A DNA stretch of 63,849 nt, the filler included, from Ferroacidibacillus organovorans (GTDB lineage Bacteria > Bacillota > Bacilli > Alicyclobacillales > SLC66), in the NCBI RefSeq assembly GCF_001642725.1. It is 6 parts of 6 records of this genome, joined end to end, with 100 filler letters (N's around TTAATTAATTAA, not from the genome) between each part and the next. Parts side by side here need not be neighbours in the genome. Positions count along the whole stretch, not along the records: positions 24,482 to 35,612 come from NZ_LSUQ01000072.1; 5 more parts are not named here. One strand, written 5' to 3'. The position numbers and the translations under genes are program-made. This document shows, one piece after another, positions 24,482-35,712 of this stretch. Under the pieces are notes generated by a model, which saw nothing but the letters and a program-made list of their open reading frames with translations, ran no database searches and was not told where the DNA came from. Each line of letters opens with the position of its first letter. Within the stretch, counting starts at the first letter, position 1.

Positions 24482-24576
24482 GTACAGAGCGGATCGGTGG
24501 TCAATAGGGTGTATCGGTAGAGGGCGAGCAGCCTCTTGTGATATGACGAGGGGCCGACACAGACTTCCTTCGTTTC

Positions 24577-24722
24577 GGGGGCGGCGGATGTGGACAAATG
24601 TCCCGTAGTCGGACGGCTGTCACGGCGCGCCCCGCGCGGGATGTCGCGCCTCACTCGAGTCATTCGCGATGCGTAAGACTATGCGAAAGGCTATGCCCAA
24701 CCCTGTGCGAAACCCTCTGTGG
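24577..24722 (+). repeat. About 145-bp degenerate direct repeat, copy 1, with four tandem 12-bp units
   Basis: Aligns with 25991-26135. Units TGCGTAAGACTA/TGCGAAAGGCTA/TGCCCAACCCTG/TGCGAAACCCTC at 24670-24717. Confidence 0.85.
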
Positions 24723-25117
24723 ACCAATTCGGAGGAGATTTGCTTTACGGACTGTTGCGATGGGAGAACATGGCCAGAATCTACAGGAGTTGAACCAGTG
24801 AAGTTCCGTCGAGGTATCCCACTCCATCAGAGCGCATAGACGGTCACTGATTTTTCATGGAAGAATCCATATTCAACTTATATAGTCATCGACCGGAATT
24901 CGACGCAGCGCGGGTGGCTACGTGTCCTGCGCCACATCGCCGCACACGTTGGTGCGGGCGACGGTAGACCGATTTCCTCCATTCGATGCGAACGTGGGAA
25001 CGTGTTGCGGCGAAGCAAATTTGAGTGGCAATGCACCTGCGGATAACAGAATTGACTTGATGGCGAGCGGGAACGAGAGGTACAGTCGGACACAACGTTT
25101 CCGGGGGTGGATCGCCA

Positions 25118-25393
25118 TTGTGTCCGATCGCGAAGCAACTACTGGCCGAAAAACTGATTGACGATTTTTACGAGGCATACGCGCGAGGTGGCCAACAGAA
25201 GTCTCGGCCCCAAGAAGACCTGGTGGAACAGCTCAAGGCACGATTGCCAACCGATCAGCATGCATGGCTGTATCGCTGGGAAGCCGAGTGCGTCGAGACC
25301 TGTACGCACGAACTACAGCAGTTTGCCAATTTCATCGCGGACCTTCTGATGGCGACTCCTGTCCACGCAAGCGATGCAAGACGTCACGAGTAA
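25118..25393 (+). CDS. Hypothetical protein
   Basis: GGGGTGGA RBS-like; helical protein-like composition. Confidence 0.55.
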   Translation: MCPIAKQLLAEKLIDDFYEAYARGGQQKSRPQEDLVEQLKARLPTDQHAWLYRWEAECVETCTHELQQFANFIADLLMATPVHASDARRHE

Positions 25394-25420
25394 CTGTTGC
25401 GCGCTGGGGGTTGCTATGTC

Positions 25421-25642
25421 TCATGAGTACCGCCAGTTTGCGCCTTCTCGGCCATGCGATAGAGGGATAGCGTGCAAGGCGGCTTGGAAGTTTTCCACCG
25501 CCGCTTTCGACGGTTCGTTACAAGTCAGTCGGATGACGACATTCCCGCAATGGAACGTGACGGTGGTCAGGTCTCCGGGGATCGTGACCCCAACCGATGT
25601 TGGATGCGCATGGGGTTCGTCCAATTTGTCAGGCGGCTGCAT
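25421..25642 (-). CDS. Small 'NxPS' family protein, paralog 1
   Basis: GGAGGTGTCCCC-ATG; shares T.NEPS.AAVE.F..AL with 34869-35081. Confidence 0.7.
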   Translation of the reverse strand: MQPPDKLDEPHAHPTSVGVTIPGDLTTVTFHCGNVVIRLTCNEPSKAAVENFQAALHAIPLSHGREGANWRYS

Positions 25643-25990
25643 GGGGACACCTCCGCATAATCATTCGCAATATGCGGATATCCACTACCCCTCACCGGAG
25701 CGAATCGGTGGGCAACGCGGTGCAGCAGCGGAGGGCGAGCAGAATTTCTTGCGCACTGGCTTCGAGGGGGTCAGCCAGCGGGGCCTCTCTACGGGTGCCA
25801 TGTGGATCGATGTCCCGATCCGTTTTCCTCTCCGATCCGCATCGTATCGGGTATCATCCGTTCAACCGGCCCCTGGTGTTTTGTGCCAAGTTCCGTGCCT
25901 AGTTGTGTTCGGCGTTTGAGGCGACGCAAGATGAGTTATCGGCTGCGTTCTCGACGATCTTCTTGTCGGAAGCGTCACTGTGTCCGTGTG

Positions 25991-26135
25991 GGGGGCGGCG
26001 CTATGGACAAATGTCCCGCAGTCTGACGCCCGTCCCGGCGCGTCCCGCGCGGGCTGTCGGGATTCCGTCCAGACGTTCACGATGCGCAAGACTGTGCGAA
26101 AGGCTATGCCGAACCCTGTGCGCAACCCTCTGTGG
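25991..26135 (+). repeat. About 145-bp degenerate direct repeat, copy 2
   Basis: Units TGCGCAAGACTG/TGCGAAAGGCTA/TGCCGAACCCTG/TGCGCAACCCTC at 26083-26130. Confidence 0.85.
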
Positions 26136-26550
26136 GGCAAGGGGCGCTGTGATGGATCCGCCCGGAAAGTGCTGCCTCCTCTTGAGCAGTGAACGACAAG
26201 TCAAACGTCCAACCCCCTTCCAAAAATGCGCCGTAGGATCACTGCAAGCAGAGGGAGCTCATCCACGCTGAACAGAGGGAGCGAGGCGGCCTGTCCGAAT
26301 GGCCTTTGACAGGGAGGTGCGTGCCGCTGATTGATAGAGACCGCGACGATTGTGCTTGGCGTCCTCGGCACAGAGCGAGAGAGAGCGGGATTGAGAGGTC
26401 TCGGAACAGGGATGGGCATTGCGCCCACTCAGACACGTGAGGGGGACCGGGCGTCGGCGTAGGACGGAACCTCCTTGGTGGGATCGCGATACGGGAACGC
26501 AAAGAGGGTGGCTATTTGATGTGCCACCCTACCCACTATTGATTGGTATC

Positions 26551-26593
26551 ATCTTACCTTCGGGAAACGAGCCTGTGGTGCCAAACCCGTGCC
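26551..26593 (-). promoter_or_regulatory. GGCAC-repeat promoter, copy 1
   Basis: GGCAC-GGGTTT-GGCACC-N20-TAAGAT. Confidence 0.6.
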
Positions 26594-27057
26594 GACACGG
26601 AACGGAGGTAGGTGGTAGAGGACAAGGAGCGTGGATTCCGTTTCTCAGTTCCGAAGGATCAGTGATCGGGAGTAAGAAAAGAGTGACGTCCACGCGCAGC
26701 GGATTGGTGGGGCCTGGGTGCCTTTTACTGCAGAAGTAGATCATCTACGTGTATACTGATGCTGAGGTACACCGAGCAACACTCGGCCCGGTATGTTCTG
26801 CGAAGAGTGTATGTGATGGCTTGTCAGTATAAATATTCACGCTTTCAAACTCGGCCTATGCAGATTTCGGCCAGCTATGCGCAATACGATCGCAATTCAT
26901 AAGCGAGGGCGAACAAAGAGAGTTTAGATTGGTTTATTACATCGCAGGGAGAGTTACATCTTCAAAGGAAATTAGGATTTTTGAAAACAGAAAAATAGTT
27001 ACAGGCGCTGTAGTAGACTAAGTATAAGAACCGCGGATGTCAGGAGGAATTCCCGAT

Positions 27058-27843
27058 ATGATGGATGCACAGACATTGCTCCGAGCCTACGACCAAGAGT
27101 TACGCACTGACGCAGAAACCCAAAACGCGTTATCCGAGACTCACCTCGGTCTATTACGCTTGGTCACGTTCGATGGCGATCAGGGTTTCGTGACCTATCC
27201 ACACCCTGACGATGCTGAGGCGACGCAAATGCCCCAATTGGTGCCACGAGTTCTCGATCACTTCCGTGAGAAACCAACTATCAACCAGGTCGAGTGGAAG
27301 ACACGCGATCATGACGGTGTCCTCGGACTCCATCAGGCATTGGTGGGAAATGGGTTCCAGCCCGACGATCCCGAGTCGATCATGATCGGAGAAGCCAAGA
27401 TGCTTGACGTCAATGTGCAACTGCCAGCTGGAGTGACACTGCGCTGTGTGACTGAAGAAGCGGATATCCGTAGAATGACGGCGATGGAGTCGCTCGTTTT
27501 CGGAAGACCCTTGGACGACATGGCGGATGTGCTACTACGTCGACTAGCGCTTAAGGACGGAATGCAACTATGGGTAGCGGAGGCAGAAGGACAGATCGTG
27601 AGCGCAGGTCGCCTAGAACCAGTCGTCGGAACGAACTTCGCTGGAATATGGGGCGGAGCCACACTTGAATCTTGGCGCGGTCGAGGTATCTACCGAGCGC
27701 TCACCGCTACTCGGTCCCGTTCTGCTCTGGACTTGGGCAAAACACTTATTTACAGTGATTCTACTGAATACTCACGTCCAATCTTGGAGCGCTCCGGACT
27801 CGTTAAGGTCTCTACCACGACCCCATACCGTTGGTACCGATAA
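27058..27843 (+). CDS. GNAT family N-acetyltransferase
   Basis: WGGATLESWRGRGIYRAL, SRPILERSG; GGAGG RBS. Confidence 0.88.
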   Translation: MMDAQTLLRAYDQELRTDAETQNALSETHLGLLRLVTFDGDQGFVTYPHPDDAEATQMPQLVPRVLDHFREKPTINQVEWKTRDHDGVLGLHQALVGNGFQPDDPESIMIGEAKMLDVNVQLPAGVTLRCVTEEADIRRMTAMESLVFGRPLDDMADVLLRRLALKDGMQLWVAEAEGQIVSAGRLEPVVGTNFAGIWGGATLESWRGRGIYRALTATRSRSALDLGKTLIYSDSTEYSRPILERSGLVKVSTTTPYRWYR

Positions 27844-28067
27844 ACTTGACTGGCAATAAGTGCTCACAGAAGACACAATCGGTAGATACTAGGATAAATT
27901 CGAGGGCATAAACCGAGCATGCAATGAAACCTACTACTGCATGTTCATCAAGTTCGCCAGACACGCTGGTTATGTCACACATGGGCAGTAATGTTCAGAA
28001 AAACAGGATTCATTACTACTGTAGAAGAAGTTATTAGCAACAGAACAAAGTGAGAGGAGACATGAAC

Positions 28068-28454
28068 ATGTCGGCGGAATTAAGTCACACTTGTTTATTT
28101 ACGGATAGCGTACAGAGATTAGCTGACTTTTACGGCAAAATACTTGGTATTGAGCCAGTTGTGTACGGTGAAGGTTATGCCGAAGTGCAAACGTCGAAAG
28201 GTACTTTGTCATTCTACAATGTAGAAGAACAAAATGAGATGGCTCCTGGTTCGGCACAGTCAGGTCCCAATCGAGCTATGATTCTTGAGTTTCATGTATC
28301 CGATGTAGATGCTGAATATAACCGACTAGTCGGCATGGACGTTGAAGTTGTCAAAGGACTCACAACTCAGTCGTGGGGCAATCGGTCATTTTATTTTCGG
28401 GACATTGATGGTAATCTGGTAAATTTCTTTTCAAGAGTCGATGTCGGGAACTAA
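28068..28454 (+). CDS. VOC/glyoxalase/bleomycin-resistance protein
   Basis: DFYGKILG, FHVSDVDAEY, WGNRSFYFRDIDGN. Confidence 0.9.
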   Translation: MSAELSHTCLFTDSVQRLADFYGKILGIEPVVYGEGYAEVQTSKGTLSFYNVEEQNEMAPGSAQSGPNRAMILEFHVSDVDAEYNRLVGMDVEVVKGLTTQSWGNRSFYFRDIDGNLVNFFSRVDVGN

Positions 28455-28461
28455 GCAATCG

Positions 28462-28575
28462 CTTGCTGAACAAACGGGGGCAAAATTGCCTTAGCCACCG
28501 CTGAGCCGCTGGTGTATCATTATACAGGCTGGCATTGCGATGCTCCCTGAAGTATCGGGCAGGAATTCCCCATAA
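28462..28575 (+). repeat. Paired dif-like site unit A
   Basis: GCTGAACAAAC-GGGGGC ... TAGCCACCGC..CCGCTGGTGTATCATTATAC ... CCTGAAGTATC-GGGCAG-GAATTCCCCAT. Confidence 0.75.
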
Positions 28576-28964
28576 CAGATATATCTAAGTAACTGGTAAT
28601 ATTACCCTACACCTCTGATTCTTCACGCGTTCAGCTGACACTGACGGTTACAAGAGATCCACACCGACGCGATGGGGGGGCAGCTGCTTCAATTCCTGTC
28701 AGCCAAACCATATCGATATGGGAAACGCAGAGGGCACTTGAACGTTGTTAGTGTTCCTTTTCGCTGATTTGGCTGTTGGAACCGAAACCAGTCCCAGTTT
28801 ATCTGACCAGGAGCATTTCTTCGATGTCTTGCTGAAGGTACACTGTGGGATGCCACATCCGACAACCGTGAACTTTACAAGCATATGGGTACATTGAATA
28901 TAGCTCGGGTTTATGGAAGGTATTTAGTGCTTCACAATGGTTGCAATAGAGAGGGGGAGGGCTA

Positions 28965-30608
28965 GTGAAGGGGTCAGTTCAATCGAGACAGCTTGCTGTC
29001 GTAATCGGAGTTAATGATTATGGTTCGGCGCAATCGAACCTCCGCTACTGTTCGAACGACGCCGAGGCCTTCTACGAATCTCTGGTTCACTACGCATCGT
29101 ACAACTCTGAAAACATGGTTTTGTTTTCGGACGGTGAGCACCAGTGCGCCAAGAAGCCCCATTACACTGATATTCTATCTGAAGTATATAGTATGTGTAG
29201 CAATGCCACGGAGAGTGACTCGATACTGCTGTTTTTTGCGGGACACGGAACGAGAGACGATGAGGACAGTTATCTCTTAACACAGGAATTTCGACCCAAC
29301 GTTATCAGTGAATCATCAATTCCTATGCGGAAGATCAATGACTATTTTACCCAGTCTAAGGCCAAGTTCAAATTGCGCTTCTTCGATGCATGTCATTCGG
29401 GGAGAATGGGGCGTAGAGGCTTGTTGAACCCCAGTGTGGATGATGCCTTTATCATAAATGCTGAAGGATGGGCTACGCTTGCAGCATGCAAGGAGACTCA
29501 GTATGCACATGAGCACGATACAATTAAACACGGTGTATTTTCCTATTACTTGGTAAAGGGTATCTCCGGAGAAGCTTCGACAAACGGCAGGACCGTTGCG
29601 CTAGATGATCTGAAGCTCTACGTGATGAACAAGACGATCGACTTGACTAGTAAGCTTGGAATGGAACAAACTCCTGTATTCGCAGGAGAACAGTCGGGTT
29701 CATTGATAATTAGCAGAGTTCGACCGGAACAAGATACGGCTCTGCCTGTTATCTTGCTTCAGATTGAGAAATCAACGGACGAGCAGTTAGAGCCATCACC
29801 TGAGCGACCAGACGCATTGTATTCAGAGTTAAACACGCTGCTCTCAGGAGAATTCGACTCCCGTGACTACGTTGCAGCAGACCAGGAAGATAAGATGCGA
29901 CGCATATCCAGTTTAACGTCCCTAATTGACGATTGGGGAAAAAGCGGTTCAAAACGATACAACGAGACATCGAACCACGCGCAGATGCAAAGTCGATTTA
30001 CTTCGGTCGAGAAGTTACCTCTCAATCGGAATCTGGCCGAGTATTTGAGTAACAACACCAAGGTCTCGGAGGTGATTGAATGGAGGTTTTTCAACCAAAC
30101 TGTAACTCGTTATGTCAAACAGACCCAGACTGAGGTAGAGGAACGTCCGTCATTTGGAATTGGATTGTCGTCCCAAAGACAGGTTCGGAGATATCGCGAG
30201 GTCAATGTGCCTCATGAAGAAGAAGTGTTGGCCGGAATTAAAGTTCAGGATGGGTATCCCGTCACGGATAACTCTATGCTATTACAGTTCAGCAGTGACT
30301 CACATTTGGTACCTCATTGCGGTTTGGTTTCCACTCTAATTCCGAACAATTTTGGGGCATATCTTCTCTGTTACTTCGTTTGCACGAAACTTGGCAAGGA
30401 ACTTAAGGAACTATGGGACGAAGATTCGTTTAACGTGAGGCATTTCTCAGCCGTGTCGTTCAGTGAGAAATATAAAGCTGAGCTTAAAAGAGAACTTGAC
30501 CAAGTGTATTCACAGTTCCTGTCATACATCATTGAACGCACCAAAGCGAGGCAAATGAAATTATCGAGCCTTGGTGCGGTTCCTGGAACTTCCATGGTTA
30601 AACCATGA
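28965..30608 (+). CDS. Caspase-family (peptidase C14) protein with unknown C-terminal domain
   Basis: AVVIGVNDY, LRYCSNDA, FFAGHG (His), FFDACHSG (Cys), HGVFSYYL, QTP. Confidence 0.9.
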   Translation: MKGSVQSRQLAVVIGVNDYGSAQSNLRYCSNDAEAFYESLVHYASYNSENMVLFSDGEHQCAKKPHYTDILSEVYSMCSNATESDSILLFFAGHGTRDDEDSYLLTQEFRPNVISESSIPMRKINDYFTQSKAKFKLRFFDACHSGRMGRRGLLNPSVDDAFIINAEGWATLAACKETQYAHEHDTIKHGVFSYYLVKGISGEASTNGRTVALDDLKLYVMNKTIDLTSKLGMEQTPVFAGEQSGSLIISRVRPEQDTALPVILLQIEKSTDEQLEPSPERPDALYSELNTLLSGEFDSRDYVAADQEDKMRRISSLTSLIDDWGKSGSKRYNETSNHAQMQSRFTSVEKLPLNRNLAEYLSNNTKVSEVIEWRFFNQTVTRYVKQTQTEVEERPSFGIGLSSQRQVRRYREVNVPHEEEVLAGIKVQDGYPVTDNSMLLQFSSDSHLVPHCGLVSTLIPNNFGAYLLCYFVCTKLGKELKELWDEDSFNVRHFSAVSFSEKYKAELKRELDQVYSQFLSYIIERTKARQMKLSSLGAVPGTSMVKP

Positions 30609-30814
30609 TATTTCGGCTTGGAAAGCGCCTGACTCAAATCAAGATGGCTACCGAACGGTGCGTCCGGTATTTTGTTGCACGTCGCCATTTGCATCAAGCG
30701 CGACTTTCTTCGTTTCTTCTGGTCGCAGCTACGGCATTGGACAAGTAATCTTCCAAGTCGATACCACCGTGGTCTCATGGAACATCAGGAGAGAAGAGTA
30801 CAAGAAACGGAACG

Positions 30815-31240
30815 GTGAAACCATTGACTAATTGCAAAATTGTGGAGCGGGCACCGACACCAGATGAATATCGTAATCTTTGCGTTTCTGTAGGCTGGGA
30901 ATCTGTGATGAATTTTGAGGTTGCCCAAAAAGCCATTGAAAACTCTTTGTTTGCAGTTGTAGCAAGGAAGGATGATCAAACCGTAGGCATGGGTCGGATT
31001 ATAGGAGACGGTGCGATATTTTACTACGTTCAGGACATTGCTGTATCACCAAAGTATCAAAAACGTGGTATTGGGACAAAAATCCTAGACACGTTGATGG
31101 ATTATATAAAGACTCATGCCCCAGAGAAAGCATTTGTTGGTTTGTTTGCGGCAGAGGGAACTGTGCCCTTTTATGAGCAGTATGGATTTAAAGATTATTC
31201 ACCGTCGATGACAGGGATTTTCCGTGTAACGCCGATCTGA
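30815..31240 (+). CDS. GNAT family N-acetyltransferase
   Basis: VGMGRIIGDG, QDIAVSPKYQKRGIG, FYEQYGF. Confidence 0.92.
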   Translation: MKPLTNCKIVERAPTPDEYRNLCVSVGWESVMNFEVAQKAIENSLFAVVARKDDQTVGMGRIIGDGAIFYYVQDIAVSPKYQKRGIGTKILDTLMDYIKTHAPEKAFVGLFAAEGTVPFYEQYGFKDYSPSMTGIFRVTPI

Positions 31241-31253
31241 CACAAAAACTTAT

Positions 31254-31367
31254 CTTGTTGCGCATAAGGGGCGCAAATTCATGAACACTGATTGCTTGCC
31301 TGATGTATGATTATACGATGGGCAATCCTTTCGTAATCTTGCGCGATCGGGCAGCATAGTTCCATAG
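31254..31367 (+). repeat. Paired dif-like site unit B
   Basis: GTTGCGCATAAG-GGGCGC ... GTATGATTATAC ... CTTGCGCGATC-GGGCAG-CATAGTTCCAT. Confidence 0.78.
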
Positions 31368-31415
31368 CGGACATGGTATTATTTGGACAATAGTCTCTGG
31401 GAGGAACTAGCTGGC

Positions 31416-31805
31416 ATGGTAATTGAGATGACAATACAGGTTCGAGTTTCGGATTTTGAAAAAGGTCTCAACTGGTACAAAACTCTGCTTAGAAAGGAAC
31501 CTGATTTTGTTCCGCATGAAGGATTTGCAGAGTGGGAACTCATTCCTGGAAGTTGGCTACAGGTAGCCGAGGGTAACCCTACACAAGGAAACGGTCCTCT
31601 TCGTCTTGGCGTTACTGATATTGAGTCAGAGCGAGAACGGGTTATGAAGGAGCTAGGCGTTGAACTGTTTGAAGTGTATTCACGGGAGGAAGTTCCTGTT
31701 AAATGGGGTAGCTTTTCTGACCCATGGGGAAACCGTCTTGGACTTTTTGAGTATCTGGATAAAACAGAAGAAGCAAAGACCATAAAGAGAGTGCTTCAGA
31801 GATAA
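31416..31805 (+). CDS. VOC family protein
   Basis: VRVSDFEKGLNWY, LRLGVTDIE, FSDPWGNRLG. Confidence 0.88.
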   Translation: MVIEMTIQVRVSDFEKGLNWYKTLLRKEPDFVPHEGFAEWELIPGSWLQVAEGNPTQGNGPLRLGVTDIESERERVMKELGVELFEVYSREEVPVKWGSFSDPWGNRLGLFEYLDKTEEAKTIKRVLQR

Positions 31806-31810
31806 CTTTA

Positions 31811-31918
31811 CTTGTTGCACAAGGGCTTGAGCGGAAGAACTATGTAGCAGTGAAGTCGCATGATTCTACATCTCAGTGGGTCGATGCTTGTGTCGCATAG
31901 GGACAGGAATCTTCAAAA
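31811..31918 (+). repeat. Paired dif-like site unit C (degenerate)
   Basis: CTTGTTGCACAA-GGGCTT ... GCATGATTCTAC ... GTCGCATAG-GGACAG-GAATCTTCAAA. Confidence 0.55.
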
Positions 31919-32033
31919 AGCAGTGATCACAAAGGGGGAATGCTAGTTTGGAATCAATATCGTGAATTGCTCGGTAAGCGCGTAGAGTAGTCTTGCCTCA
32001 CATTGTTCGATGAATATAATGTAGATTACTTCA

Positions 32034-32540
32034 ATGGTCTCTACTGTGCGGGGTGGTCCTGTGAGTTGTCGTCTTGCGTTCTTTAGTCAAGAGTGGGAGT
32101 CGTCAGTGGGAAACTTCAAGTTACATGATTCACAAATGGTTTTCAGTTTCTTGCCGAGTAAAGCCCTTGACTTTTTCCATAATCAGGACGCTTGCTCGGT
32201 CGTTATTTTTATTGATGAAGAACCTGTCGTTTTTTTTGTCTTACACAAGTGTGGAGAGACTTCTGATTTTACCGAAAATAATACCGCGATTTTTTTGCGA
32301 TCTTTCTTGATTGACAAGAGACATCAAAGAAAAGGCTACGCAAAATTAGCGTTGGCTATTTTACCTAAGTTTATGGAAGACCATTTGCCTTATGTGGAGG
32401 AGATCGTTCTGACTGTAGATGAAAACAATTTAGCAGCAAAAAGATTATATGAAAAATCCGGATTCATACACAAAGGGAGAACTAAAGTAGGTAGAAGTGG
32501 TCTTGAACTTGGTATGCACTATTCGCTCAAGGGCAGTTAA
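32034..32540 (+). CDS. GNAT family N-acetyltransferase (possibly decaying)
   Basis: FLIDKRHQRKGYAK, LTVDENNLAAKRLYEKSGF. Confidence 0.8.
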   Translation: MVSTVRGGPVSCRLAFFSQEWESSVGNFKLHDSQMVFSFLPSKALDFFHNQDACSVVIFIDEEPVVFFVLHKCGETSDFTENNTAIFLRSFLIDKRHQRKGYAKLALAILPKFMEDHLPYVEEIVLTVDENNLAAKRLYEKSGFIHKGRTKVGRSGLELGMHYSLKGS

Positions 32541-32746
32541 TCATTTTTGGCAAGCTAATAGCCAACAGCAAATGCGGAGTGGAAATTCGTGCCATTTGAT
32601 ACTCTTCCCATTTCTCATTCTTTGATCTTCATATACTTTCATCAACAAATGGTATCGACAACCACATCCCTTTGAATCAGTCATTGATCACACGGTGCGA
32701 GTTTGCGAAGAAATCATTCCAAGTTCTTTGATTTTCTAAGAGACAT

Positions 32747-32859
32747 ATTACTGTACTACGGGTGCGTATCTGGAATAGCCACCGCAGATCCGCTGGCGTA
32801 TGATTATACATAGGGTTCGACCCAATGATCTTGCGCATACGGGCAGTTTAGTCCCATAC
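32747..32859 (+). repeat. Paired dif-like site unit D
   Basis: ACTGTACTAC-GGGTGC ... TAGCCACCGCAGATCCGCTGGCGTATGATTATAC ... CTTGCGCATAC-GGGCAG-TTTAGTCCCAT. Confidence 0.78.
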
Positions 32860-32891
32860 CGTGGAAACTATATTCAGGGAAGAAGAACACC

Positions 32892-33299
32892 ATGGACAAG
32901 GACGTAGAGACCGCCATCGTAAAGACGTTCTTCAACAAAAGGGTTCAAGATCGGATCTTGTTAGAGTTGTTTTCCTCGGATAAGCGGCGAAATCGAGGAC
33001 TTAATCGGTTGTGCCATCACTACCGACAGACTCTCCGTGAAGAATATCTGATTGAAATACCAACGCCTAATTCAGATCCCAAAGAAATTGCCGACATACT
33101 GAAGAGAAATGGTGCGGGCAAGTCATTTTATGCGATGTCATGGAATCCCGACATCGACGGAAAACATTTGTCCATTGACGAGGCTCTGGATGCGGTGACC
33201 ACGATTACCGAAATTGGACACGAACATCAATGCCATCGGGGCCTCGCTTATAGTCAATGCGTTCAATCAGCAGTTTTGCGAGTCGATTTCTCTCCTTGA
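32892..33299 (+). pseudogene. Hypothetical protein, probably 3'-truncated where it meets the recombinase gene
   Basis: About 100 natural-looking codons, then the last ~30 codons are antisense to the recombinase 3' end (95-nt overlap). Confidence 0.55.
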
Positions 33300-34698
33300 C
33301 ATCGACGCGTGCTTCCCAAGCCGATTTGAATGCATCGAACCTTTGCACCCGCAGCGCGCGCGTCAGTTCGGCGCATCCATCAAGGTGATCGCGTAGCTGA
33401 TAGATTTCGTTCTCCTTTTTCACCATCAGGGTCCTCAAACTCTCCAGTCGTGTGGTGTAGTCTTGTTTGGAGAGATCGCCCATCACGAACAGGTCCTGCA
33501 ACCGGTTCACCCCTTCTCTCAGGCGTTCGAGTTCAGCCTCCTTCGTTTGTAACAGACACTCTGACACCAGAACGGGTTCCTCGGCATCTGCAGGCATTTG
33601 GAGGAGTTCCGTTTCATATTGCCGCATACTTTCGAACACGGCGGTTTCTACAGGCTCGAGTTCAATGCCCGGATTGCCGCAGATGATCCCGTCGTTGCCC
33701 GGTCTTTGGCATTTCTTGACGAGGGTTCTGCCGTTTTCTTTCGGCTGAAACTTCAGCGAGGAACCGCACCGGCCACAATGGAGGAGACCGGAGAGAAAGT
33801 AGGTTCCGTGCCTTGAATGCTTGGGCTGAACGCGACGCCCTTCCAAGAGTTTGATGATTTGCAGATGTTCAGCCGGTGTCTTCACGGCAGGGTGTGCGTT
33901 TTCGACGATGATCCAATTTTCTCTGGGGATCACTTTGAAGGGCGCTGCCTGCCGCTTTTTATGCAGTCCACCGTTGGTCTTCCCATACACTACGCGTCCC
34001 AAGTGGACTTCGTTGATGATCAGCCGATACAGTACGCTGTCCGACCAACGTGCTCCTTTTGGAGAGGGGACAGTGCGGCGGTTGAGCTCTGCGCAGACCG
34101 CGCTGCAGGTTTCACCGCTTAAAATTTGATCTTTGATAAAACGATAGGTCTCTAATTTCGCAGGATCAATCTGCAGGCTGTGGACGTCTGCGTTGTATAC
34201 GTAGGGAAATGGGGCCGGACCGTTCGTCCAGTGGCCTAGGCGAGCGCCAATCTTCTTGCCGCGCTGGAACCGCTTCTTAATCATCCGGTACTCATACCTG
34301 GCGAACACGCCTTCGATGTCCGTCATGAGTTCTTGGTCCTCGTCGTTCAAGTCATAGACACGTGTCGGCGTGACCACGACCGTGTTGGAGCGCTTGAGAA
34401 TTTTCTCGATCCGCGCGCGGTCCTCTTTGTCGCCCCGACTGAGGCGATCATAGTCGACCACGACGACCGCATCGTAGAAGTCGTTTTCGACGTCGCTGAG
34501 CAGGCGTTTGAATTCGGGCCGGAATTCAATGCTGTCGGAACTGCCGATTTCCCGGTAGATCACATAGCGCCAAGTGTTTTGGCGAGCGAGATCGGTGAGG
34601 GCGGTTTCGTGTTTGAGCAAAACGTCTTCCTCGCCGTCCGAATCATCGCGACTCTTGCGCAGATAGATGGCCACTTCGTAGATTTTCTTGGGTTCCAT
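33205..34698 (-). CDS. Large serine recombinase (resolvase + recombinase + Zn ribbon + coiled coil)
   Basis: YLRKSR catalytic Ser; RPEF; DRLSRG; LSGLLHCGRCG; LIERIDY. Confidence 0.95.
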   Translation of the reverse strand: MEPKKIYEVAIYLRKSRDDSDGEEDVLLKHETALTDLARQNTWRYVIYREIGSSDSIEFRPEFKRLLSDVENDFYDAVVVVDYDRLSRGDKEDRARIEKILKRSNTVVVTPTRVYDLNDEDQELMTDIEGVFARYEYRMIKKRFQRGKKIGARLGHWTNGPAPFPYVYNADVHSLQIDPAKLETYRFIKDQILSGETCSAVCAELNRRTVPSPKGARWSDSVLYRLIINEVHLGRVVYGKTNGGLHKKRQAAPFKVIPRENWIIVENAHPAVKTPAEHLQIIKLLEGRRVQPKHSRHGTYFLSGLLHCGRCGSSLKFQPKENGRTLVKKCQRPGNDGIICGNPGIELEPVETAVFESMRQYETELLQMPADAEEPVLVSECLLQTKEAELERLREGVNRLQDLFVMGDLSKQDYTTRLESLRTLMVKKENEIYQLRDHLDGCAELTRALRVQRFDAFKSAWEARVDVKERNRLAKLLIERIDYKRGPDGIDVRVQFR

Positions 34699-34868
34699 GG
34701 TGGTATCACCTCGATTCGTGGCATCATGTGTTCCTTCCTTTTCAGCTTTGCTCTGGACGGTGAACGAGTCAACGGCAACGAATGGAGAGACCGCGGGAGT
34801 TAAGGCTGCGGATGAAAGGATGGGTATGGTCTTGGATCAGCCCCGAAAGAATACTCGGGGCGTCTGGT

Positions 34869-35081
34869 TCACGGGATCCAACTGGGATCGATGAGTCGCA
34901 TCATGAGTGGATACAAAGCACTACGGAAGCTTTCCACGGCGGCAGTTGAGGGCTCGTTACTGGTCACGCTTATGGTGAGTTTCCCGTGCTGAAGGACCAT
35001 TGTCTTGGCTGGACCGGGTTTGACTAGGGAGGCGGGCTCGTTGACGGGCTCGACGAACGACGCGTCTGTTGGTGAGGGCAT
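34869..35081 (-). CDS. Small 'NxPS' family protein, paralog 2, upstream of the recombinase (candidate directionality factor)
   Basis: AGGAGGTGTCCCC-ATG; GKLTISVTSNEPSTAAVESFRSAL. Confidence 0.7.
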   Translation of the reverse strand: MPSPTDASFVEPVNEPASLVKPGPAKTMVLQHGKLTISVTSNEPSTAAVESFRSALYPLMMRLIDPSWIP

Positions 35082-35166
35082 GGGGACACCTCCTGCATTT
35101 GATGTGACGGGGTCAGGGTGGACGTCGACCTAAGCGCGGGAGCAGCGATGAAATAGTGGCAAATTC

Positions 35167-35219
35167 AGCGTACAAGTTTTATGGTCGGCATGGTGCCATC
35201 ATCGTGACCGGAGCGTGCC
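35167..35219 (-). promoter_or_regulatory. GGCAC-repeat promoter, copy 2, facing the small ORF and recombinase
   Basis: GGCAC-N6-GTCAC-N6-GGCACC-N19-TACGCT. Confidence 0.55.
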
Positions 35220-35381
35220 AATAAGCCAGGCACACGTGCGCAAACTGCCGACATGCGCGCACCGACGCTGGGTGGTAGAATTATCCGTAGAACATTCAGT
35301 TTGGTGTTTCTACGGAGTGCATCTCAACGCACGCGGGCAAGCTGAGCACGTGAGAATGAATTCCAGGGAGGAAGATGCTCT

Positions 35382-35612
35382 ATGTCAAACGATGCGCAGA
35401 GCCACAAACACACCAACCGCCTGATCCACGAAAAGTCGCCTTACTTACTCCAACACGCGCACAATCCCGTCGACTGGTACCCATGGGGCCCAGAGGCGTT
35501 CCAAAAGGCCGCCCGTGAATCGAAGGCAGTATTCCTCTCCATTGGCTATTCGTAGCCCTGCGGGGCTACGAATAGCTGTATACGCTGAAAGTGGAGTAGT
35601 TTATCGACCTGT
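35382..35612 (+). CDS. yyaL: YyaL/SPATA20-family thioredoxin-domain (DUF255) protein, 5' part, interrupted by a 54-nt coding gap and cut by the contig end
   Basis: GGAGG RBS. ATG 35382 gives [57 protein letters not shown] then TAG 35553. In-frame TCG ACC TGT (S-T-C) at 35604-35612 continues the family motif IGYSTCHWC. Confidence 0.9.
35545..35606 (+). other. Candidate programmed ribosomal bypassing element (gene 60-like)
   Basis: Take-off TCG 35550-35552; TAG; 14-bp perfect stem with C(TGCG)G tetraloop; GGAG 35593-35596; landing TCG 35604-35606. Confidence 0.7.
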
Positions 35613-35712
35613 NNNNNNNNNNNNNNNNNNNNNNNNNNNNNNNNNNNNNNNNNNNNTTAATTAATTAANNNNNNNNNNNNNNNNNNNNNNNNNNNNNNNN
35701 NNNNNNNNNNNN
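35613..35712. other. Artificial contig linker
   Basis: N-TTAATTAATTAA-N. Confidence 0.99.

Follow-up and report, generated by a model that had tools for sequence, protein, structure and literature searches.

An interrupted yyaL gene at the end of a contig

The DNA analysed here (the window, 63,849 nt from Ferroacidibacillus organovorans) consists of draft contigs strung together by artificial linkers (N44-TTAATTAATTAA-N44), in which positions 24482–35612 represent the complete contig C72 (NZ_LSUQ01000072.1) of a 3.03-Mb genome in 98 contigs (GCF_001642725.1, coded G000). The right end of this contig carries the 5′ part of a yyaL (DUF255) gene. Its 57 codons are followed at once by a UAG stop buried in a perfect hairpin; beyond a gap of 54 nt that contains a second in-frame stop and a Shine-Dalgarno (SD)-like motif, the coding sequence resumes at a second TCG codon with the first residues of the TCHWC motif, and is then cut off by the end of the contig (Table 1). 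A gene for a large serine recombinase (LSR) lies about 680 bp upstream of this yyaL 5′ module, in divergent orientation. An initial annotation of the contig end, correct in every sequence detail and coordinate and dealing with a real contig break (the end of C72), had proposed that ribosomes hop over the gap, as in gene 60 of bacteriophage T4.

Comparison with homologues strongly backs the core of this proposal, as the stop, the hairpin, the SD-like motif and the resumption at TCHWC are conserved over 63 loci. The arrangement is probably a gene 60-type translational bypass cassette, carried by integrative elements that encode large serine recombinases.

Table 1. Features at the right end of contig C72 and their positions in the window.
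Feature	Position	Strand	Evidence
Large serine recombinase gene, 497 aa, Resolvase + Recombinase + Zn_ribbon_recom	33208..34698	-	Pfam
Motif like a ribosome-binding site (RBS), AGGGAGGAA, 5′ of the ATG of the module	35365..35373	+	Read directly; the C54 copy is preceded by the same motif
yyaL 5′ module, 57 codons, MSNDAQ...FLSIGYS	35382..35552	+	PF03190 (Thioredox_DsbH/DUF255), profile positions 1-47, E 4.8e-20 (Pfam)
Putative take-off hairpin, perfect 14-bp stem (35545-35558 with 35563-35576), with take-off codon and stop inside	35545..35576	+	Fold z = -5.2
Putative take-off codon TCG (Ser), closing ...FLSIGYS	35550..35552	+	Read directly
UAG stop, adjoining the take-off codon on its 3′ side	35553..35555	+	Read directly
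54-nt coding gap, with UAG stop and landing codon both counted in, as in the initial annotation	35553..35606	+	Read directly
UGCG loop capping the hairpin	35559..35562	+	Read directly
Second in-frame stop TGA	35586..35588	+	Read directly
Recombinase attachment site, P arm; putative crossover TG just past the contig end	35590..35612	.	Site symmetry and contig ends
SD-like GGAG, 7 nt ahead of the landing codon, which likewise forms the outer motif of the attachment-site arm	35593..35596	+	Read directly
Putative landing codon TCG	35604..35606	+	Read directly
Resume codons ACC TGT (Thr-Cys of TCHWC), truncated by the contig end	35607..35612	+	Read directly
Artificial linker between C72 and C73 (N44 + TTAATTAATTAA + N44), not biology	35613..35712	.	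Read directly

Gapped yyaL genes across the Bacilli

The sample on which the comparison rests comprises 63 full-length gapped yyaL loci across the Bacilli, with 56 distinct sequences of take-off site and gap (entries L074 and L151 are one record). A census of the order, covering 61 genomes, found 40 with a full-length gene interrupted by a gap of the hairpin type, 3 with a gap of 19–20 nt, 5 with an uninterrupted gene (IGYS-TCHWC), 7 that could not be classed and 6 without a match, so that 43 of the 48 genomes with a readable junction are gapped; gap-free yyaL is thus present in five relatives. An exact-pattern scan of all species genomes returned 41 stretches, nearly all from Alicyclobacillaceae and their relatives, plus one from Thermoactinomycetaceae. 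A degenerate pattern run over 401 sampled genomes of the class matched 48 of them, with 18 of these hits in seven further families, against none for a reversed-pattern control. Two matches were rejected: L075 (Vicinamibacteria) has no yyaL context and was set aside as chance, and the reverse-strand match at L069 was discarded because the palindromic stem is hit on both strands, its forward reading being kept as a stub.

The codon before the gap encodes serine in all 63 loci, and a stop follows it directly in every case (TAG in 57, TGA in 5, TAA in 1). Coding sequence is resumed exactly at TCHWC, uninterrupted orthologues read IGYS-TCHWC, and the codons of TCHWCHVM vary synonymously only. The gaps measure 17–61 nt, a multiple of three in 35 loci and not in the other 28. 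These lengths bear on stop-codon readthrough, by which residues would be added ahead of the CxxC motif. A gap divisible by three, as in the window copy and the 35 loci just mentioned, would permit such an extension; the 28 out-of-frame loci, however, refute it as a general mechanism, many of the in-frame gaps hold two stops, and the 6–20 residues inserted before the active-site CxxC would vary wildly from species to species between invariant flanks. Readthrough is therefore extremely improbable.

Both parts of the gapped gene are well preserved. No premature stop occurs in any 3′ part of the 63 loci: 62 of these parts are open for at least 558 codons or up to a natural stop at 627–663, and that of L057 is readable for the 68 codons before the locus ends. 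Both are under purifying selection, with a median ratio of nonsynonymous to synonymous substitution (dN/dS) of 0.07 in the 5′ part and of 0.10 in the 3′ part. The seven yyaL 5′ modules, or stubs, of the F. organovorans genome (see below) are similarly constrained, with nonsynonymous divergence (pN) of 0.12, synonymous divergence (pS) of 0.62 and a median dN/dS of 0.10. Since all stubs share a homologous hairpin, their synonymous divergence (pS 0.62–0.71) arose with the stop and the gap already there, and as this divergence postdates the gap, a 57-codon coding sequence ending in a stop has stayed under purifying selection. Owing to its internal stops or frame shifts, a gapped yyaL would look like a pseudogene or like two fragments in annotation based on open reading frames (ORFs).

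Two particular cases were noted in the course of this survey. Three loci of one family (L146–L148, from G116, G251 and G411; family f17) have an 18-nt gap without hairpin, TCC-TAG-CGGAGG-ATTACA-TCC, in which the serine codons are perfectly matched and a full GGAGG stands 6 nt ahead of the landing codon. Genome G007, 96% complete, carries stubs only (such as L037, on its contig C24) and gave no match to a yyaL 3′ part; as its sequence runs into unrelated DNA after ...ACCTGTCATTGG, yyaL may really be lost there.

The hairpin and the gap

The RNA fold of window positions 35520–35612 has an energy of -41.5 kcal/mol (z = -5.2), which was equalled by none of 200 shuffles. Over 38 distinct sequences, 94.2% of stem cells are paired. 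The stem-loop that encloses the stop has a tip of the form CC(C)-UNCG-GG(G), with a UNCG loop in 39 of the 42 genes of the hairpin class, a figure that includes three CUCG loops. Among the variants, the UGA stop of L154 is accompanied by a change of its stem partner to UCA, the sequence in L139 is UAGCC-UUCG-GGCUA, and the loop of L150 is GUAA; the class of genes with gaps of 17–21 nt has no comparable stem. One stem pair is compensated, from U-A to C-G in ten sequences, by a synonymous TAT>TAC change on the left side and A>G on the right, which bears out the proposal that the right arm is co-adapted with the yyaL coding sequence of the left arm. All of the 30 one-sided changes that preserve pairing give G.U on the sense strand, and the confinement of G.U pairs to that strand indicates that the hairpin acts as RNA, not as DNA. 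A hairpin of the IS200/IS605 type or of the integron attC type was also considered and was dropped, given that the recombinases present are of the serine type and that the stem changes favour RNA.

Rfam yielded no family for positions 35150–35612 at E values up to 1. A scan of 34650–35612 for promoters and terminators returned nothing, including no consensus sigma-70 promoter, and the hairpin, which lacks a T-run, is not an intrinsic terminator. A further pairing was observed in the minimum free energy fold (window 35520–35600), where CUCCAUU, from the Leu-Ser-Ile codons just 5′ of the hairpin, pairs with AGUGGAG, the site of the SD-like motif of the gap. This pairing lengthens the helix and sequesters GGAG, and matching UCCAU and AUGGA are found in other gap types. 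It could draw the sites of take-off and landing together, or be a ratchet behind the ribosome.

The gap's 3′ part is richer in A and T (fraction 0.60) than the flanking coding sequence (0.45). Triplets cognate to the take-off tRNA are depleted (15 observed for 27 expected, a count this low arising in 4 of 1000 shuffles), and most of these 15 sit within the hairpin loop.

The motif GGAG or GAGG occurs 4–11 nt before the landing codon in 39 of the 63 loci and is absent or weak in 24. It could equally serve a split gene, in which the 57-aa N-terminal peptide would assemble non-covalently with a C-terminal protein that has its own initiation, from GGAG. The spacing of the motif from the landing codon is indeed initiation-like in these 39 loci, an in-frame ATG stands directly before the landing codon in seven of the 63 (L022, L023, L024, L047, L138, L139 and L143), and split topoisomerase subunits do function in relatives of T4, according to bioRxiv 10.1101/2022.08.31.505936. 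Against this, in 30 of the 36 genes tested the stretch from the last stop to the ACN codon offers no ATG, GTG or TTG in the 3′ frame, often with only 1–6 codons open, and neither the match between landing codon and take-off tRNA nor the placing of the stop in a hairpin has a role in re-initiation. The break would, moreover, separate strand beta-1 from the CxxC motif that it precedes in what we take to be the thioredoxin fold of this region of YyaL. On balance a split gene appears quite improbable.

Putative take-off and landing codons

For the analysis of codon pairs, the genes were collapsed to 35 clusters of gap 3′ ends, which correspond to 37 cluster-by-codon classes. Pairing between the landing codon and the anticodon of the take-off tRNA-Ser is possible at positions 2 and 3 in 35 of the 37 classes; in 22 it extends to all three positions. 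Neither count was reached in 10,000 permutations of the landing codons, and triplets slid by 1–6 nt gave 1–9 of 35. Counted by locus, pairing extends to positions 2 and 3 in 54 of the 63 and to all three positions in 37. The pairs seen, written as take-off>landing, are TCG>TCG/CCG/GCG/TGG, TCC>TCC/TCT/TTT/GCT/TCA, TCA>TCA, AGC>AGT/TGC/CGT and TCT>ACC. With TCG as take-off codon, the third base of the landing codon is invariably G, and it is C or T with take-off codons read by tRNAs with G34, the sole exception being L139 (TCC>TCA). All four tRNA-Ser species (anticodons CGA, UGA, GGA and GCU) were found in the F. organovorans genome.

A retained serine codon does not account for this match, as only 34 of the 63 landing codons encode serine. 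Duplication of the target site was likewise rejected as its source, failing for TCC>TTT, TCC>TCT, AGC>AGT, AGC>CGT, TCC>GCT and TCT>ACC; the confinement of non-identical but wobble-compatible pairs to G34 tRNAs also argues against simple target duplication. The homologues therefore display the combination of stop, UNCG hairpin, matched landing codon and covariation for which the initial annotation had suggested to look (TCC>TCC/TCT/TTT, TCA>TCA, AGC>AGT). Its emphasis on a matched landing codon stands in the sense that the landing codon tracks the take-off tRNA; strict identity of the two codons is not required, the match being partial in 26 of the 63 loci and the active copy of this genome landing on CCG.

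Association with large serine recombinase elements

LSR elements inserted in protein-coding genes are familiar from other Bacillota, examples being SPbeta, with its recombinase SprA, in spsM and skin, with SpoIVCA, in sigK. The F. organovorans genome contains six recombinase paralogues including that of C72 (66–100% identity), the other five, at 66–74%, being found on C56, C59, C46, C69 and C68, and the contigs with paralogues all carry stubs or attachment (att) sites. Around a central TG, 23 of 30 positions are symmetrical at the sites on C8 and C69, 16 of 30 at C59, and 14 of 30 at the yyaL junction; the symmetry at C8 and C69 is of the form expected for the attP site of a serine recombinase. 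The 3′ half of the gap doubles as one att-site arm of LSR elements that are stacked at yyaL. The cassette is carried by such elements, and does not represent an isolated insertion in a chromosomal gene.

Related genomes display the same association. Four relatives with contiguous assemblies have extra stubs upstream of the full gene, in the same orientation and 28–477 kb away. The stubs of G033, G038, G052 and G057 have a recombinase homologue on the opposite strand 1–11 kb downstream: two stubs and two homologues in G057, three and three in G052, one and one (broken) in G038, and three stubs with one fragment in G033. In three metagenome assemblies the same yyaL 3′ part (99% identical) is joined to a different gap type, and loose ends past CACTGGT enter P′-arm sequence in DNA runs X1, X4 and X6. 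These facts fit serial insertion at one yyaL site, each element donating a new 5′ module. No endonuclease family was found by Pfam among 62 neighbouring ORFs. Searches for an element-borne stub together with a P|P′ site gave only three short matches by blastn against plasmids, to ordinary thioredoxin-domain genes, and zero matches in a phage database.

The same setting could suggest that the insert is a mere docking arm of the recombinase, a scar in a yyaL gene that has been inactivated, with stubs that decay and no hopping at all. The 3′ half of the gap really is an att arm, the genome does carry layered insertions, and with frequent exchange of 5′ modules some insertions may be recent. Such an account would nevertheless demand a dead yet perfectly open yyaL in 43 of the 48 junction-readable genomes of the order, and the 3′ ORF is disrupted in none of the 63 gapped loci. 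The stubs are under purifying selection though all of them end in a stop, and all those seen carry the gap, so that recombination at the TG crossover could never restore a gap-free gene. The invariable stop after serine, the UNCG hairpin with its sense-strand G.U pairs and the match between landing codon and anticodon would be left unexplained. We consider a dead gene improbable.

Removal of the gap before translation, whether from RNA by an intron-like or processing step or from DNA by site-specific excision in cells that express yyaL, appears highly unlikely. There is precedent in the LSRs that excise elements from Bacillus sporulation genes (skin by SpoIVCA, SPbeta by SprA), and the hairpin could serve as a processing signal. 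The whole gap, however, is on the same side of the crossover and cannot be deleted by recombination at that point, and no gap-free contig of this organism was seen in four DNA runs, with the proviso that contigs drop rare variants. At 17–61 nt and with unrelated 3′ sequences, the gaps are both too short and too diverse to be a self-splicing intron, and the Rfam search was blank. The stop, the SD-like motif and a landing codon that matches the anticodon belong to translation rather than to splicing.

Seven modules and a single 3′ part in one genome

Searches of the whole F. organovorans genome by blastn and tblastn identified seven yyaL 5′ modules, on contigs C72, C86, C54, C59, C68, C8 and C83, each with the hairpin and a gap of 51–54 nt followed by (N)CGACCTGTCACTG. 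The genome has a single yyaL 3′ part (C54:12698–14821), and of the seven modules only that of C54 runs into it. The C54 cassette has the same layout as that of the window, with two in-frame stops in the gap, and its landing codon is CCG. On C59, C68 and C8 the sequence after CACTG departs into a mirror image of the 3′ end of the gap. Contigs C72, C86 and C83 stop, and C56 and C69 start, at one and the same point, all of these contig ends lying at CTGTCACTG. The last 123 nt of C72 are identical to C86, which extends 5 nt further to ...CACTG; both break at the recombination crossover. One unitig of run X1 connects the gap type of the window to P′-arm sequence.

As the sole 3′ part is on C54, the window copy is not part of a full-length gene, and is most likely a spare or displaced module beside its recombinase gene. 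The continuation of this copy into yyaL, assumed in the initial annotation, has against it both the position of the 3′ part and the X1 unitig that leads to the P′ arm. The module in use in this genome is that of C54.

Two observations on these contigs may be added. At the module of C8 (L004, near the P|P′ site), which belongs to a 51-nt gap type with TGG landing (...GGAGTAATATATGG ACC), an ATG occurs 6 nt past GGAG, out of frame with yyaL; it would provide a short alternative ORF across the att site with a canonical start. In the isolate-type run X1, the contig left of the yyaL module (L009:1300–2500) has a word depth of about 53, compared with 6–9 for the contigs of the 3′ part. This may reflect a difference in copy number or excised or replicating element DNA, one depth figure per contig being too coarse to tell.

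A bypass model for yyaL expression

The model proposed here builds on the anatomy and conservation of the cassette, the selection on both halves of the gene, the covariations, and the recombinase and att-site context described above. LSR elements would insert in yyaL with the crossover within the codons of the CxxC motif (CAC|TG|G), and element DNA would replace everything left of the crossover with its own RBS, first 57 codons and left arm of attP. The cassette would thus be the terminal portion of a portable yyaL 5′ module. Since the outer part of this attP arm cannot encode ...SIGY, it would be placed in an untranslated gap. A ribosome on the message would read to serine (UCG) and then meet the UAG buried in the C(UNCG)G-capped hairpin; it would retain its peptidyl-tRNA-Ser, slide over 17–61 nt, be positioned by the SD-like GGAG, and let the tRNA re-pair on the landing codon. 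Translation would restart at ACC UGU CAC UGG, and the IGYS-TCHWC junction of the product would be that of uninterrupted YyaL. In this way yyaL would be healed at the level of translation and the gene would keep working. For the integrative element this would represent a new strategy, in which it carries a replacement gene end, hides an att arm from the ribosome and needs no excision.

Several points weigh against this model or limit its reach. The hop itself and its efficiency are what we infer from sequence, and the crossover dinucleotide and the attribution of attB and attP roles are likewise deduced, on the evidence of site symmetry and of contig ends. The window copy most likely lacks a continuation into yyaL, as discussed above. 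Landing codons are only partly cognate in 26 of the 63 loci, the common TGG landing type (8 genes) is mismatched at the middle position, and CCG in the active copy of this genome is a partial match. Bypassing in T4 needs a nascent-peptide signal; gapped and uninterrupted genes share the residues before the take-off site (..K.VFLSIGYS), with nothing seen that would be specific to the former. The SD-like motif and in-frame ATG just before the landing codon in seven genes could yield a separate 3′ protein. A stub without a gap, i.e. a true B|P′ junction, did not occur among the stubs seen. As 5′ modules have been swapped often, dN/dS of the 3′ part between species cannot by itself date selection to the time after the gap. 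The genomes are, finally, related, so the counts are not independent, and the collapse to 35 clusters and 37 classes follows a crude rule.

Taken together, the core of the initial interpretation, a translational bypass, has held up, while the continuation of the window copy and the identical landing codon have not, and the carrier elements had been missed; nor did support emerge for the suggestion that the hop gates synthesis just before CxxC.

Other genes carried by the elements

The element that holds the recombinase gene of the window also encodes a 547-aa caspase-domain (Peptidase_C14) protein and two GNAT acetyltransferases (window 28965–32537). Just upstream of the active module of C54 (L001:291–4745) are genes for a 1485-aa STAND/NACHT-type NTPase and a 412-aa protein without Pfam family, which resemble cargo of a defence type belonging to the element inserted last. 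Downstream of the P|P′ site of C8 (L004:2141–6822) lie genes for a KAP-family P-loop NTPase, an unassigned ORF, a QueC-like protein and a TatD-like DNase; they may constitute an element-borne island of DNA modification or defence. A group II intron reverse transcriptase/maturase (RVT_1 + GIIM) is encoded about 5 kb upstream of the module of C86 (L006:5305–6936), and on C68 a pair of Phd/YefM antitoxin and PIN-domain toxin genes (L003:1019–1884) separates the att site of the element there from its recombinase gene.

Comparison with known systems

Like the SPbeta and skin elements, the elements at yyaL encode recombinases with Resolvase, Recombinase and zinc-ribbon domains, integrate within an ORF, and use imperfect inverted-repeat att sites around a central dinucleotide. 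Excision of SPbeta or skin restores the gene; here, in contrast, the 5′ end is replaced, the arrays are co-oriented, and excision cannot remove the gap.

A literature search, with subscription journals and supplements outside its scope, found no report of bypassing in yyaL, in Alicyclobacillus or in any bacterial chromosomal gene. The known cases listed in a 2023 paper (PMC10732093) are T4 and related phages, the mitochondria of Magnusiomyces, and a candidate in phage Hau3; efficient programmed bypassing has so far been regarded as an isolated curiosity, to judge from the same source and from bioRxiv 10.1101/2022.08.31.505936. If the model holds, a bypass-dependent gene in many Bacillota that are culturable and non-pathogenic would provide the field with dozens of natural variants. 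These would span gaps of 17–61 nt, with and without hairpin, and four tRNA-Ser species, which would allow the rules that govern take-off, sliding and landing to be probed with ordinary bacterial ribosomes.

The byp elements of Magnusiomyces capitatus mitochondria, as summarised in PMC7026636 and in the preprint by Manning and Atkins, are also short mobile inserts in conserved genes that are skipped by the ribosome, with a take-off stem-loop and matching codons. They are, however, mitochondrial, make no use of SD motifs and occupy many genes and sites, whereas the cassette described here occurs at one site of one gene, in a recombinase context, and would be decoded by bacterial ribosomes. The terminase candidate of Streptomyces phage Hau3 resembles it in its short, non-coding, frame-shifting inserts in a conserved gene, for which a stem-loop and an SD motif have been proposed; it differs in being a phage gene with inserts of 10 nt and in its proposed trigger, a rare UUA codon with tRNA scarcity (PMC10732093).

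The closest parallel is with T4 gene 60, whose bypass features are taken here from PMC7026636, PMC5462505 and bioRxiv 10.1101/2022.08.31.505936. Both have a sense take-off codon followed at once by a stop, mostly UAG, within a stem-loop tipped by CC(C)-UNCG-GG(G), and a gap of tens of nucleotides with an AU-rich 3′ part and an SD-like motif a few nucleotides ahead of the landing site. The tip of L139, CC-UUCG-GG, is that which the bioRxiv preprint gives for the T4 family, and the reduced stem-loop of the short-gap variants has its counterpart in a reduced clade of that family. In both cases, too, the cassette belongs to a mobile element, occupies one conserved site of one gene, and allows (at yyaL presumably) foreign DNA to be tolerated with the protein unchanged. 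The differences are nevertheless considerable. The host is a cellular bacterial yyaL/DUF255 gene, not a phage topoisomerase gene, and the carrier is an LSR integrative element, not a MobA homing endonuclease, to which the T4-family cassette is said to be "unique" in the same preprint. The take-off residue is serine, compared with glycine or aspartate; the stem is longer, reaching 14 bp; the motif stands 6–10 nt from the landing codon, compared with 5–7 in the T4 family; first-position mismatches at landing are common; and a portion of the gap also serves as binding arm for a recombinase. The system at yyaL is, unlike that of T4, known from sequence alone.

It is tempting to speculate further that hopping is the normal and obligatory decoding of a cellular housekeeping-type gene in dozens of species from at least nine families of Bacilli, and that UAG-CC(C)-UNCG-GG(G) with a mini-SD is a portable "gene-healing" device common, by descent or exchange, to homing-endonuclease elements of phages (T4 gene 60) and serine-recombinase elements of bacteria. 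We consider this wider proposal unlikely; were it true, similar cassettes would be expected at other intragenic integration sites. As the host gene differs, no endonuclease is found in the neighbourhood, and the likeness lies in a tip of about 16 nt (L139), the yyaL cassette is better described as one that would work like gene 60 than as a member of the MobA/topoisomerase lineage.

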